This document shows positions 8,908 to 16,481 of a DNA stretch of 16,481 nt, piece after piece. Location: the IMG/VR virus record IMGVR_UViG_2563366825_000024; one strand, written 5' to 3'. The DNA is from a virus (Duplodnaviria; Heunggongvirae; Uroviricota; Caudoviricetes). Under the pieces are notes generated by a model. It worked only from the letters and a program-made list of their open reading frames with translations. It made no database searches and was not told where the DNA came from. The position numbers were made by a program, and so were the translations under genes. Each line of letters begins with the position of its first letter. Within the stretch, counting starts at the first letter, position 1.

Positions 8908-8963
8908 ATCGGCTGAACCTCAGCAACCAGTTGACGGGGACTTTCGTCCCCGTCGCGGTTTTC

Positions 8964-9104
8964 CTACTGCTTACACTGTAAGAACGCCGCAAACTCCGCT
9001 CCCCACAAATTCAGCCGGAACTCACACAACGAGCCGTGTAACATCCAGATGGTGAAGATTACCGTCATACAAATTGTGACGGTGATGAGCGATTTTTGCG
9101 ACAT
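8964..9104 (-). CDS. Hok/Gef-family-like type I toxin, 46 aa small membrane protein (MSQKSLITVTICMTVIFTIWMLHGSLCEFRLNLWGAEFAAFLQCKQ)
   Basis: Not in the ORF track (below its size cutoff). ATG at 9102-9104 with AGGAGG (plus 9113-9118) 8 nt upstream; stop TAG at 8964-8966. N-terminal hydrophobic helix, then SLCE-x-R ... E-x-AAF-L-x-CK, which matches my recollection of the Hok/HokA/PndA pattern. Confidence 0.6.
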   Translation of the reverse strand: MSQKSLITVTICMTVIFTIWMLHGSLCEFRLNLWGAEFAAFLQCKQ

Positions 9105-9288
9105 AGCGCTTGCCTCCTGAGTGGAGAGGCGCTAACCTTCTACTTGCTTAAGGTATGATGGTTAGGGCCTCGGGTTAAACAAAATGTTTGACTCGGGGCC
9201 TTTCCACATCAGGCCTTCAGGTTCTCCCTCCAGCCATCAGCCGAAAGGCACCCGCGCATAATCTACGATTTTTGCCCTGCACGGGCAA

Positions 9289-9314
9289 CAAAAAACCCGC
9301 CATCACAGCGGGTT
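9289..9314 (-). terminator. Putative intrinsic terminator downstream of the Ail/Lom-like gene
   Basis: On the minus strand: AACCCGC-TGTGATG-GCGGGTT followed by TTTTTTG, about 23 nt after the TGA at 9337-9339. Confidence 0.5.
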
Positions 9315-9336
9315 ATGACATGTTGTCGGGTATTAC

Positions 9337-10074
9337 TCAGAATTTCAGGCCAATGCCTGCAAATAAACCATCAGTTTTCCAGTCGCCAGAGCCTGAGCTT
9401 TCATAAGTGACGTCCATAGTAACACTTTCATTGAAGTTAAATTGCGCGCCGACAGACCATGCAATAGACGTTTTTTTGGTGCTGTTACTTTCAGAAAAAC
9501 TACCGGCACCATGATTAAGATTGTCGTTAATTTTCAAGTCAGTGGTGACTTTTGCAACCCCCATGCCAGCCATTGCATACACACTGAGGTATTCGTTAAA
9601 CCGCCACGAAGGACCGGATAGTAGACTCCAGTAATTAGCCCTGATATCAGTTCTCGCTGAAGCTGCCGGGTTTTTTACCTCTCGTGATGGATCGGAAGGC
9701 TTAACATCAATAAATGCCTGCGCATTAGTCATGGAGCGCGCCCATGTAAAAGAGGCTATAACACCCAGTTCATCAGTTATCTCGTAACGATACCTGATGC
9801 TCATCCCCAGGGGGCTTTTGGCTGTGCCGTCATGCCCCCGGGCAATAGCATTTTCGTATTCAGCTGATGAATTAAAATGGTTTACGTTTACAACATTCCT
9901 GAACGTATCCCGGTTATAAACACCCGCGTCTCTAACAAAATCCTTCAGCCCGGGGAAGCGTATGTGTGCAAACCCGAGAGATACCGTACTATCGCCTGAT
10001 GCTGCATTTACCTGTGCAGTTAAGCAACTCATCACCAGAACTGCACACGCAAAAAATTTCATGATACTTTTCAT
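9337..10074 (-). CDS. Outer-membrane beta-barrel protein, Ail/Lom/PagC/OmpX-like (245 aa, longer than typical members)
   Basis: N-terminal signal peptide ending AQVNA-AS. Internal IRYRYE resembles the family signature; C-terminus GIGLKF ends in Phe as is typical for OMPs. True ATG at 10072-10074, second in-frame ATG 4 codons later. AT-rich. Confidence 0.65.
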   Translation of the reverse strand: MKSIMKFFACAVLVMSCLTAQVNAASGDSTVSLGFAHIRFPGLKDFVRDAGVYNRDTFRNVVNVNHFNSSAEYENAIARGHDGTAKSPLGMSIRYRYEITDELGVIASFTWARSMTNAQAFIDVKPSDPSREVKNPAASARTDIRANYWSLLSGPSWRFNEYLSVYAMAGMGVAKVTTDLKINDNLNHGAGSFSESNSTKKTSIAWSVGAQFNFNESVTMDVTYESSGSGDWKTDGLFAGIGLKF

Positions 10075-10983: not shown

Positions 10984-13119
<2,136 letters not shown>

Positions 13120-14055
13120 ACAGCGTATTTTGCACAGGAGTCGCTGAAAAATACGCGTTAATCGAACAATGGCGACAACAATTTCCCATTGAAGCGATGT
13201 GTCAGGTATTTGGTGTATCCAGGAGCGGTTATTACAACTGGGTACAGCATGAACCCTCAGACAGAAAACAAAGTGATGAGCGGCTAAAACTGGAGATTAA
13301 GGTGGCACATATCCGCACTCGCGAAACATATGGAACCCGGCGGCTCCAGACGGAGCTGGCAGAGAATGGCATCATCGTTGGTCGTGACCAACTGGCACGT
13401 CTTCGTAAGGAGCTAAGGCTACGCTGTAAGCAGAAACGCAAGTTCAGAGCGACTACGAACTCGAACCACAATCTGCCAGTTGCGCCAAATCTGCTGAACC
13501 AGACGTTCGCTCCTACAGCACCAAATCAGGTCTGGGTGGCGGACCTGACGTATGTTGCCACACAGGAGGGATGGTTGTACCTCGCTGGCATCAAAGATGT
13601 TTATACGTGCGAAATTGTCGGCTACGCCATGGGAGAGCGCATGACAAAAGAGCTGACAGGTAAAGCCCTGTTTATGGCGCTCAGGAGCCAGCGCCCACCT
13701 GCCGGGCTAATCCACCACTCTGATCGAGGTTCACAGTACTGCGCATACGATTACCGGGTCATACAGGAGCAGTTTGGTCTGAAAACATCAATGTCGCGTA
13801 AAGGTAACTGTTACGACAACGCTCCGATGGAAAGCTTCTGGGGAACGCTGAAAAATGAGAGCCTGAGCCACTATCGTTTTAATAACCGGGATGAAGCCAT
13901 CTCAGTAATACGGGAATACATTGAGATTTTCTACAATCGTCAGCGTCGTCACTCTCGTCTGGGGAATATCTCCCCGGCAGCCTTCAGGGAAAAATATCAT
14001 CAGATGGCTGCTTAAAAAAAGAACAAATGGTAGTGTCCGCTATTGCCAGTACACC
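13120..14055 (+). mobile_element. Second, different IS3-family element, 5'-truncated (orfA replaced by IS30); right end approximate
   Basis: OrfB frame is open from the IS30 junction (NSVFCTGVAEKYALIEQWRQQFPIEAMCQVFGVSRSGYYNW...) to TAA at 14013-14015. DDE motifs HHSDRGSQYCA and GNCYDNAPMESFW. Sequence is distinct from the left-hand IS3-family copy. Confidence 0.7.
13197..14015 (+). pseudogene. IS3-family transposase OrfB segment (272 aa from internal ATG), no orfA present
   Basis: Track ORF. The upstream in-frame region lacks the OrfA frame and frameshift window, so a normal OrfAB transposase cannot be made. Confidence 0.7.
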
Positions 14056-15730
14056 TCAGAACCCCGTTCTCCAGCGGAGTGATTTTCACTCCTTTATCTG
14101 AAATATCAACATCCGGCAGCTCACCGGCAAGAGCCATTGCGTTAACTTCTTCCAGACGAGATGCAAGAAGCGTCATACGGGCCTGAAGATATGCATGGCA
14201 ATCAGTCTGCACAGCCAGTTGTAACTGGTCATTTTGTCGGGATTTATCAAATTCAGTGACCGGGATAAGATAATCATCAAAATTTCTGTAACGACGCGAC
14301 CCTTTTACCCAAATATCTCCGGAACGTAACGCCCCCTTGAGTTCATTCAGTACACAAAACTCATAGTATTTTCGATTGATGCCTGAAGGCGTTAATACCA
14401 GTTTTCGCCAGCTTTCAGGAATAAATGCTGTTGGCGCTGTAGGCGGAACGTTACGAAGCTGCTTACGGTATATTTCCCTTATAGTATCCAGTGCATCGCT
14501 GAGCGGCTGCGCCGCAGGTGTCGCTACAAACTGCAATGCTGACAACATTCGTGGAGCGTATTTTCGAAGTGTGCTGTATTTTTCGGTGATCAGGTGAAGA
14601 GGATCGAAATTACCTTTACGGGACAGCAACTGTGTTTCTTCCAGGCTGTTGACGAACTCCTGCCTGGGAATAACATCTTCTATCGCGGCCCAGGGATCTT
14701 CACCTGACTTTCTGGCATGCAGTAGCGCCTGACCGACAGTAACATATTGTCTTAACTTGCTCTGGATAAGTTTGCCTGTTAACTGAAGCCTCTCGGCTTG
14801 TGTGCGTTTTGCCTGGCTGAACAGACCGCCCATAATGCGTTCGTGTAGCTCGATAACTTCATCAGTCAATGTTGCTCTGGCTTCCTGAATGACACAAACC
14901 AGCGTAGCGTAACGTCTGATATCGGTGAATTTTGCCAGATCTCTGCTGCTCATTTTTCGGCCCTCACGCGCCAGTTTGAGTAATTTGTTCTGGTGAACGG
15001 AAAGCTCAATACCATCAGGTAATTCCAGCGCGGTGATAGAATTAAGTCGATCGATATGTTGCAGCACGTTTTTACCGTTAATTTTACCGGGAGGCTGAAG
15101 TAGCCACGCAAGTCGGGAAGGTTGTTCCCCTTCTGATATGAGCAGGCTGTCGAGTGCAGATCTATGCTGCTTTCCCAGTTGTGTCGTAAGTGCCGAAAAA
15201 ACAGATCTGTCAGCAAGTGTGACGGCTTCGGCAAGCGTCCGTTCGATCACATCAACCGACGGGAAAATAACATTATTGTTATGTAGCCAACTGAGCATTT
15301 CCTCCGCCAGAGTAAATCCTTTATCTGTTCGCATGGCATAGGAATGCAGATGCCGAATGCAGTCTTTTTGCAGAGTTCGGCTGAACGGAGATAATTTCAG
15401 GTAGCGATAAAGTTCAGCCAGATGCTCCCAGCGGGTTTGCTCTCTGGCTGCATATTCATGCCATAAATCGGGCTGAAGCTTCAGTCTTGAAGCAATTCTG
15501 GATACAACGCCACAGTGGGGAACATTATTTTTGTCCGGAACAAATCCAGGCCCACGCAGGTAACAGAGTAATACCGCAAAGCCCAGGCGATTAGCTGGAC
15601 GCCGGTGCTTATTAATGAGAGCAATATCTTTATCACAAAGAAAACACATTCTGGTCAGAATAATTTCATCATCTGGTATAACCAGCAGGCGAGCTTGCTC
15701 TTCACTACTCAGTATTTGTCGCCGTGGCAT
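14012..15730 (-). pseudogene. tnpA: Tn3-family transposase TnpA, N-terminal about 556 aa only; C-terminal catalytic region removed at the IS3-family junction
   Basis: Starts MPRRQILSSEEQARLLVIPDDE...ANRLGFAVLLCYLR, resembling Tn21/Tn3-family TnpA N-termini from memory. TnpA-like sequence stops near ...KITPLENG; the last 16 codons and the stop are encoded by the IS end sequence. Confidence 0.75.
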
Positions 15731-15890: not shown

Positions 15891-16481
15891 ATGTCTCGAA
15901 TTTTTGCCTATTGTCGGGTTTCCACTCTGGAACAGACGACCGAAAATCAACGTCGGGAAATCGAAAGCGCGGGTTTTAACGTCAGACCCCAACGAATAAT
16001 CGAAGAACAAATTAGTGGCTCAGTAGCAACCAGTGAACGTCCTAGTTTTAACCGGTTGCTTGATCGTCTGGAAAGTGGCGATGTATTGATAGTCACAAAA
16101 CTGGATCGCCTCGGTCGTAATGCAATGGATATCAGGAAAACAGTGGAGCAACTGACCGAATCTGGCATCAGGGTGCATTGCCTGGCATTAGGTGGTGTTG
16201 ATCTGACCAGTCCGGCAGGAAAAATGACAATGCAAGTGATTTCAGCGGTCGCTGAATTTGAACGAGATCTTTTACTTGAACGAACTTATTCAGGGATAGC
16301 AAGAGCACGGGATGCAGGAAAACGTTTTGGTCGCCCACCGGTATTAAATGAAGAACAAAAACAGAAGGTACTCGAACGCATTAAGTCTGGGGCAAGTATA
16401 AGTGCTATTGCCAGGGAATTCCGAACCACACGGCAAACAATTCTGAGAGTTAGAGCGAAACAGCAAACTGTTACTGTATAG
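15891..16481 (+). CDS. tnpR: Serine recombinase, resolvase/invertase family (196 aa), probable transposon resolvase
   Basis: ATG at 15891, stop at 16479-16481. N-terminal catalytic motif YCRVSTLEQ, then LDRLGR and AEFER; C-terminal helix-turn-helix-like tail. Divergent from a Tn3-family tnpA across a res-like site. Confidence 0.8.

Follow-up and report, generated by a model that had tools for sequence, protein, structure and literature searches.

Elements of the Locus

The stretch of DNA analyzed here (the window) comprises the 16,481 nucleotides of the Caudoviricetes record IMGVR_UViG_2563366825_000024 and carries, at positions 8899–9288, a hok/sok-type type I toxin–antitoxin module, which we recognized by its sequence and by comparison with known loci and whose elements lie on both strands. 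The toxin gene, on the minus strand, encodes a Hok-like protein of 46 amino acids (aa). This protein belongs to the Pfam family HOK_GEF (PF01848; 33.2 bits for a curated cut-off of 22, E = 4e-8) and also matches phrog_251 (E = 2.8e-24). Translational coupling of the toxin gene to the reading frame mok is a textbook feature of hok/sok loci, and it is this frame that is missing from the present module.

The leader of the toxin gene (9093–9253, minus strand) aligns to the entire Rfam model RF01794 (positions 1–157) with 42.1 bits and an E-value of 4e-8 in a permissive scan of 601 bases. This is short of the gathering score of the model (59 bits), and an Rfam scan of the whole window at gathering thresholds gave no matches. 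The remaining weak matches of the permissive scan (Trp_leader, mir-675, Hrs1, and others) were set aside as chance or as the lom terminator. RF01794 is labelled "sok antitoxin"; yet the strand it matches here is the hok sense strand and the match stops at the hok AUG, so that the model describes the leader of the hok mRNA and not the Sok strand. An annotation gap results, in that the Sok-like RNA falls under the Rfam threshold, and none of the records inspected has it annotated.

The elements of the hok mRNA were placed by a base-by-base alignment with R1 hok, hokB, and hokC, combined with RNA folding. They are, in the order of transcription:

9283–9288, minus strand: hok promoter −35, TTGCCC; across four genomic contexts, relatives retain TTGCC[CG]
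9260–9265, minus strand: hok promoter −10, TAGATT, behind a 17-nt spacer and 6 nt before G9253; relatives keep TAnnnT
G9253, minus strand: predicted start of the hok mRNA
9105–9253, minus strand: leader (5′ untranslated region, UTR) of the hok mRNA, 149 nt, matched by RF01794; 72–89% identity in relatives
9247–9253, minus strand: tac, GGGUGCC, at the 5′ end of the mRNA; its partners are fbi (full-length mRNA) and 9195–9207 (truncated mRNA)
9195–9207, minus strand: ucb-like box, GUGGAAAGGCCCC, partner of tac after truncation; near-invariant, hence complementarity without covariation
9146–9207, minus strand: segment of the leader serving as Sok target, complement of the predicted Sok-like RNA
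9167–9171, minus strand: GAGGC, at the position of the mok Shine–Dalgarno (SD) sequence in canonical loci, aligned with the GAGG that precedes the mok ATG in R1, hokB, and hokC
9123–9133, minus strand: dcb or anti-SD box, AGCGCCUCUCC, common to two mutually exclusive helices
9113–9118, minus strand: hok SD, AGGAGG, 8 nt before the AUG, with a predicted opening energy that depends on the state of the mRNA
8964–9104, minus strand: hok-like toxin gene, 46 aa (MSQKSLITVTICMTVIFTIWMLHGSLCEFRLNLWGAEFAAFLQCKQ), from the list of open reading frames (ORFs), Pfam HOK_GEF, and phrog_251
8932–8955, minus strand: 3′ stem-loop, at which the truncated, active mRNA is predicted to end; its counterpart in the alignment is the terminal stem of truncated R1 hok mRNA
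8917–8930, minus strand: 3′-UTR box, partner of the Sok-target loop region 9140–9154 in the full-length mRNA (helix 6)
8899–8905, minus strand: fbi, GGCACCC, complementary to tac, placed from the folds and from conservation

In the alignment, the predicted −10 falls at the promoter position of R1 hok, hokB, and hokC.

Folding of the hok mRNA

The 361-nt hok mRNA folds at −158.5 kcal/mol (z = −7.2), well beyond chance expectation, and in its minimum-energy fold tac (9253–9247) pairs with fbi (8905–8899), as in the R1 paradigm. Such a fold-back pairing of the leader had been envisaged in a preliminary description of this DNA, made from the sequence alone, and is borne out by tac being paired in 98.9% of the alignment cells of the full-length fold. 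Conservation of the folds was counted over 54 distinct sequences, with slid partners and shuffles as controls. Overall, 92.1% of the cells are paired in the full-length fold (36–43% in the slid controls) and 92.8% in the truncated fold; such overall figures are biased toward the fold, since it was obtained from the window itself and the sequences compared are relatives of one another. It is the compensatory pairs that are informative: in the full-length fold, 24 pairs are altered on both sides, as against 10.4 ± 1.8 in the shuffles. Clean GC↔AU swaps are found in the 3′ stem-loop, where all cells are paired and four of the nine pairs show compensatory changes, and in the long-range helix 6 (9154–9140/8930–8917), which joins the 3′ part of the Sok-target loop region to the 3′ UTR in the full-length fold and in which three pairs alternate between GC and AU or between UA and CG from one relative to another. 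The inverted repeats listed in the preliminary description for the region 9105–9290 also find a place in these structures, although only one of them lies within that region: CCGTCA (9062–9067) and TGACGG (9077–9082) form an mRNA hairpin (helix 11) that falls within the coding sequence of hok and shows compensatory changes among relatives, and TTAAACA (9175–9181) and TGTTTGA (9185–9191) form the top of a hairpin of 16–18 bp at 9164–9202.

The two folds differ at the hok ribosome-binding site. In the full-length fold, CUCUCC holds the hok SD in a hairpin closed by AGCGC:GCGCU and adjoining the AUG; this SD-sequestering hairpin is formed by all 14 variants of the ribosome-binding segment, with energies of −10.3 to −14.8 kcal/mol. 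In the truncated fold, tac pairs with the ucb-like box (tac is paired in 99.7% of cells), a SD/dcb helix is predicted as well (89.7% of cells), and GAGGC..CUAACC captures GGUUAG..GCCUC, with GAGGC at 9167–9171 pairing with GCCUC at 9126–9130, which leaves three pairs at the hok SD hairpin. The anti-SD box is thus shared: its partners are the hok SD and 9105–9109 in the full-length and Sok-masked folds, and GAGGC..CUAACC in the truncated fold. When the Sok target is made unavailable in the truncated fold, the SD hairpin returns.

The same alternation is seen in the predicted opening energies, defined as the ensemble cost, in kcal/mol, of opening positions −15 to +4 of a start codon. The values for the full-length, the truncated, and the truncated and Sok-masked mRNA are, in this order:

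This clade, hok (54 sequences): 12.3 ± 1.4; 7.1 ± 1.2; 11.9 ± 1.9
R1 hok: 17.5; 16.1; 16.5
R1 mok: 12.8; 8.0; target masked
hokB: 16.8; 15.2; 16.8
mokB: 14.6; 3.5; target masked
hokW: 10.3; 8.1; 7.8
mokW: 14.9; 8.1; target masked

In all 54 sequences of the clade, the truncated form has the lowest hok opening energy, and a closed, open, and re-closed hok site is predicted for each of them, against none of the three canonical controls. In these controls (R1, hokB, and hokW), the mok site switches whereas the hok site does not.

Relatives also differ in what follows fbi. In P2-type relatives, a strong terminator stands about 25 nt after fbi; it is absent from the window and from all Stx-phage copies, in which the sequence 3′ of fbi is the leader of the next gene. 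For this gene, a 133-aa ORF, the annotated start at ATG 8907 (also the RefSeq start) is probably eight codons early. As phrog_610 aligns from residue 9, ATG 8883 is favored as the true start, and fbi would then lie in the 5′ UTR and ribosome-binding region of the downstream gene rather than in its coding sequence. The 3′ stem-loop at 8932–8955 is terminator-like on the plus strand too, where the stem is followed by CGGTTTTCCT, and could halt opposing transcription.

A Sok-like Antisense Gene

Opposite the leader, the plus strand is predicted to specify a Sok-like antisense RNA of about 60 nt, whose ends were placed by reference to SokB, SokC, and SokW and which corresponds, at the level of sequence, to the sok gene of the R1 paradigm:

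9110–9115, plus strand: Sok-like promoter −35, TTGCCT; the opposite strand carries the hok SD at an overlapping position
9133–9138, plus strand: Sok-like promoter −10, TAACCT, behind a 17-nt spacer and 7 nt before G9146
9146–9207, plus strand: predicted Sok-like RNA, about 60 nt, with an 18-nt 5′ tail, the hairpin 9164–9202, and a UUUCC tail

The layout of this putative promoter parallels that annotated for K-12 sokB (TTGCCG-N17-TAAGAT-N7-G) and equals that of sokC. Phage 933W has the same two hexamers in its annotated sokW promoter; detection of sokW RNA has been reported, as has a relief of antitoxin activity on mutation of that promoter (PMC8621323). Among the 54 distinct relatives, 53 keep TTGNNN-17/18-TAACCT-7. 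No variation is seen in GGUUAG, the strand with the −10, although the mRNA segment pairing with it does vary (column 103, AU in 38 and GU in 16), which indicates a constraint beyond RNA pairing. A simple consensus promoter scan of 8800–9400 found no plus-strand promoter, so that it is understandable that none had been seen by eye in the preliminary description; promoter prediction on this strand succeeds only through homology to sokB and sokW, which gives TTGCCT-N17-TAACCT.

Further support comes from the strand on which the structure is the more stable. The 63-nt plus-strand RNA folds at −30.5 kcal/mol (z = −6.3) and its complement at −16.4 kcal/mol. For the hairpin of 16–18 bp at 9164–9202, the values are −23.2 kcal/mol on the plus strand and −13.3 kcal/mol on the other, with an advantage for the plus strand in 54/54 sequences. 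In every variant, the hairpin contains two to four G·U pairs that become A·C mismatches on the mRNA strand. Together with the difference of about 10 kcal/mol between the strands, these pairs argue that selection has favored folding of the plus strand. Variation among relatives is greatest in the 5′ tail of the Sok-like RNA, a tail that complements the target-hairpin loop of the truncated mRNA fold. The conserved promoter and hairpin of the plus strand fit the earlier expectation that a Sok-type antisense RNA would be encoded here.

Absence of mok

The leader is closed in all three frames, by TAA at 9150–9148, TAG at 9142–9140, and TAG at 9134–9132. The last of these is in frame with hok; it had been reported 11 codons upstream of the toxin gene, and the distance is 10 codons to the hok ATG. 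Another frame, described earlier as overlapping the toxin ORF by about 26 codons, indeed stays open between 9147 and 9022, reaching about 27 codons into hok, and has no ATG, GTG, TTG, CTG, or AUH codon before the hok ATG. As read from its codons, then, the leader has no reading frame that can carry ribosomes into hok.

This is not a peculiarity of the window. In none of the 50 distinct leaders of the 46-aa clade does a start codon (ATG, GTG, or TTG) follow GAGGC at the canonical mok position. As a positive control, the same script recovered in R1, hokB, and hokC an ATG located 57–58 nt before hok, 8–9 nt behind GAGG, and heading a frame that enters hok. Any ORF entering hok is lacking in 28 of the 50 leaders, and in the others such ORFs differ in start (−130, −103, −76, −46) and in frame. 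The suspicion that no mok-type coupling ORF exists at this locus is thus upheld: by all sequence indications, mok is absent from the window, and its absence is a fixed trait of the whole 46-aa Hok clade.

We also considered a leader ORF starting at AUG 9209, which is kept in 53/54 relatives. It was rejected as a conserved frame since its length ranges from 1 to 79 codons across relatives, a consequence of hairpin-loop indels that are not multiples of three. The conservation of this AUG is accounted for by RNA pairing, as it falls within the ucb-like box.

Distribution and Selection

The module (396 bp) was found in 1750 of 5426 complete Escherichia coli genomes (32%), with a maximum of nine copies in one genome, and also in 198 phage records. 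Four contexts share it as a single block: Stx phages (lom-hok-L0129), the ends of P2-like prophages (ogr-hok-terminator), the interval between J and a tail-fibre gene of lambdoid prophages, and a site adjoining ykgO. Similarity between contexts starts at or just upstream of the hok −35 and ends a few bases after GGCACCC; these borders, at the hok −35 and past fbi, define a mobile unit some 390 bp long. Members of the 46-aa Hok clade occur in Shigella, Salmonella, E. albertii, and Citrobacter as well. A scan of genome contigs gave seven loci, including three near-identical copies in assemblies titled Xanthomonas pisi, Planococcaceae MAG (metagenome-assembled genome), and Vagococcus sp., which we take to be contamination or mis-binning.

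The median dN/dS of Hok is 0.22 over 278 pairs, and the comparison with 933W gives dN = 0 and dS = 0.30. Conservation of the leader equals or exceeds that of the coding sequence (72–89% identity in relatives). These substitution patterns indicate that the locus of the window is under purifying selection and has not decayed. A truly decayed copy is found in the IMG/VR contig 2529293141_000015, unlike the window: at about positions 525–600 of that locus, unrelated sequence has taken the place of the hok promoter, tac, and the first part of the leader, and hok and the Sok-like gene remain.

Relation to Known Systems

The closest paradigm is R1 hok/mok/sok (parB), whose mechanism is summarized in PMC9841398. 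The window locus shares with it a Hok/Gef toxin, an aligned promoter position, tac, fbi, ucb, dcb, and the 3′ stem-loop that ends the truncated mRNA; in both, the Sok promoter occupies the interval from the target to the hok start and its −35 overlaps the hok SD, and the 5′ tail of Sok complements a target-hairpin loop. It differs from R1 in its lack of mok (GAGG is kept, with no start codon after it and all frames closed), in the length of Hok (46 aa, against 52 in R1), and in the deletion of the inner hairpin between dcb and the hok SD. The predicted behavior of the hok site differs as well: it opens on truncation in the clade of the window, whereas that of R1 stays closed at 16–17.5 kcal/mol. 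With K-12 hokB/mokB/sokB and hokC/mokC/sokC, the locus shares the leader alignment, the GAGG box, the layout of the Sok promoter, and the length and hairpin of Sok. Unlike it, hokB and hokC have a mok that starts 57–58 nt before hok, and the hokB ribosome-binding site is predicted to be closed in all states.

The locus resembles hokW/mokW/sokW of 933W and Sakai prophage 5 (Takada et al. 2021, PMC8621323) in being carried by the same phages and in its mRNA plan and Sok promoter hexamers. We nevertheless rejected its identification as hokW (51 aa, MKQQKAM...), whose leader pattern does not occur in the window. In 933W, hokW, mokW, and sokW are annotated at 58.4–58.7 kb, whereas the present locus stands unannotated at 45.5–45.9 kb, between lom and L0129. 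It is thus a separate locus about 13 kb away from hokW, which encodes a 51-aa toxin and has an annotated in-frame mokW. An identical Hok, also unannotated, is encoded at 44.5–44.9 kb of VT2-Sakai (Sp5), in a module 93% identical to that of the window. The 5′ tails of sokW and of the Sok-like RNA are unrelated, making cross-talk between them unlikely. Phenotypes of a ΔhokW-sokW mutant of Sp5 have been published, for example a halved phage release; because 933W and Sp5 carry a second hok locus, these phenotypes were measured with another Hok present and may be confounded by it.

The toxin gene itself is already known through annotation, as a "Hok/Gef family protein" in PGAP and as "MokW-like host killing" in PHROGs-based pipelines; the absence of mok and the Sok-like RNA are undescribed in the literature searched. 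This search returned no description of the window locus, of its Sok-like RNA, or of a hok without mok, and covered papers other than those under subscription, notably Pedersen and Gerdes (1999) and Steif and Meyer (2012); the supplements of the Sakai RIBOseq small-gene paper contain no match to the 46-aa Hok. The literature covered presents mok as a component of the system, Mok is still treated as an essential element in recent work (PMC9841398), the T1TAdb paper makes no mention of mok, and a preprint cataloguing Hok proteins (10.1101/2025.08.07.668861) states that Mok and Sok were left unanalysed. A common and conserved clade devoid of mok would show that the coupling ORF is dispensable and would offer a natural system for asking what mok adds.

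A Model for the Control of Toxin Translation

We favor the interpretation, which we hold to be reasonably probable, that the window contains an intact hok/sok-type module of a distinct prophage-borne clade without mok, in which the hok ribosome-binding site is gated directly. Folding models suggest that such a variant probably controls toxin translation directly through RNA structure. The full-length mRNA would be locked by the tac–fbi pairing and by pairing of the leader with the 3′ UTR, which would hide both the Sok target and the hok ribosome-binding site. Upon removal of the 3′ end, tac would pair with the ucb-like box; GAGGC..CUAACC would next seize the GGUUAG..GCCUC box and draw the anti-SD strand off the hok SD, and hok could then be translated directly from its own strong SD. 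Binding of the Sok-like RNA to 9146–9207 would draw GAGGC..CUAACC into a duplex, freeing the anti-SD box to re-close the hok site, and the duplex with the leader would be a likely substrate of RNase III. In this scheme, we propose that the switch that operates at the mok site in R1 has passed to the hok ribosome-binding site, and that the Sok-like RNA acts directly on hok translation as well as triggering decay of the duplex.

A parallel in outline exists in the aapA/IsoA type I systems. There, the full-length toxin mRNA is locked by a 5′–3′ interaction, and 3′ processing exposes its own SD and yields the translatable form; the antisense RNA binds the processed form, the duplex is delivered to RNase III, and no leader ORF is involved. 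The toxin family, the sequences, and the organism differ from those of the window locus, so that the likeness would be one of analogy and not of membership. These systems, from Helicobacter pylori, are mentioned in PMC9841398.

A wider form of this interpretation is offered tentatively: a large clade without mok would inhabit Stx-converting, P2-like, and lambdoid prophages, with a three-state control resting on the hok site and, in the Stx context, an unlocking by the downstream cistron. In Stx phages, where the terminator would have been lost and the next gene would have fbi in its ribosome-binding region, Hok could be unlocked by processing or translation of the downstream cistron instead of by simple 3′ trimming. 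If true, this would tie killing to the state of the prophage.

Several observations weigh against the favored interpretation. The RF01794 score of the leader is below the gathering score. In the window, which has the Stx-phage context, the first terminator-like site 3′ of fbi is at 8454–8435 (minus strand), after the 133-aa ORF, and an 822-nt read-through transcript has lost the tac–fbi pairing in its minimum-energy fold. The tac, ucb, GAGGC, and dcb sequences are near-invariant, so that the helices of the truncated state rest on complementarity and not on covariation. On the plus strand, the −10 TAACCT has three of six consensus bases and is missed by the consensus scan, and the Sok-like hairpin is followed by only three U residues. 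Finally, the opening energies are thermodynamic predictions on related sequences, in which the Sok-bound state is modelled only by barring pairing of the target.

The same module and Sok-like RNA could also operate with an antisense that acts only through destruction of the truncated mRNA by RNase III, without re-closure of the site; the loss of mok would then mean that hok is translated from its own SD whenever truncated mRNA survives. The Sok-like RNA would form a perfect duplex of about 62 bp with its target, and duplexes of R1 Sok are degraded by RNase III (PMC9841398). The activity of sokW is partly dependent on RNase III (PMC8621323), and masking the Sok target leaves the hok site of hokW unclosed, so that decay alone can suffice in a relative. 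We regard this explanation as unlikely in its exclusive form, given that re-closure of the hok site is predicted in 54/54 sequences of the clade and in 0/3 canonical controls, and that all 14 variants keep the anti-SD hairpin. RNase III decay as the main route is compatible with both of these points, and the two mechanisms are not exclusive. Still less credit can be given to a cryptic leader ORF that couples translation in place of mok, either from AUG 9209 to UAA 9164–9162 (15 codons) or from a non-canonical start. The near-universal conservation of this AUG, the AAGG that precedes it, and the entry of its frame into hok in 7/54 relatives would favor such an ORF; however, the inconstant length of the frame (1–79 codons, with loop indels out of phase) does not, the frame of the window ends 58 nt before the hok AUG, and neither frame that reaches the hok start has a near-cognate start upstream of hok. 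The location of the AUG in the ucb-like box and of AAGG in helices in both folds again leaves RNA pairing as the explanation of their conservation.

At the other extreme, the toxin gene might be decaying or unregulated, and the plus-strand promoter and hairpin functionless leftovers, in line with the second of the two alternatives given earlier, a regulator divergent from classical Sok or a degenerate locus. The missing mok, the low RF01794 score, the lack of a terminator after fbi in the window context, the interruption of the surrounding prophage segment by insertion sequences at about 10976, and the existence elsewhere of a copy that has lost its promoter and tac (IMG/VR contig 2529293141_000015) would agree with decay. 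We nonetheless consider it very improbable: dN/dS is 0.22 and the leader is as conserved as the coding sequence, compensatory changes occur in several helices, the 390-bp module persists undamaged both in four unrelated contexts and across 32% of complete E. coli genomes, and a strong SD would make an unregulated Hok lethal. Degeneracy does not square with purifying selection and with the presence of every other element of the hok mRNA, nor does divergence square with a classical Sok layout whose hexamers are those of sokW; it is the missing mok that sets the locus apart.

Genomic Context

Up to about 10976, the window corresponds to the late or moron region of a 933W-like Stx-converting phage. 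The order on the minus strand is the gene of a lom-like outer-membrane protein (9337–10074), the lom terminator (9314–9294), the hok module, and the phrog_610 gene. Beyond about 10976, the phage segment is cut by a nest of insertion sequences (IS) and a Tn3-family fragment:

10991–11737, minus strand: IS3-family ORF
11961–13112, plus strand: IS30 transposase
13197–14015, plus strand: second IS3-family ORF
14012–15730, minus strand: N-terminal fragment of a Tn3-family transposase (DUF4158)
15891–16481, plus strand: resolvase

No record in the E. coli or plasmid collections contains the phage/IS junction in one piece. At the opposite end, positions 1–5700 (minus strand) lie within a giant LPD38-domain gene, which measures about 8.3 kb in the relative NC_013353.1; because it runs past the left end of the window, this gene is missing from the ORF list.

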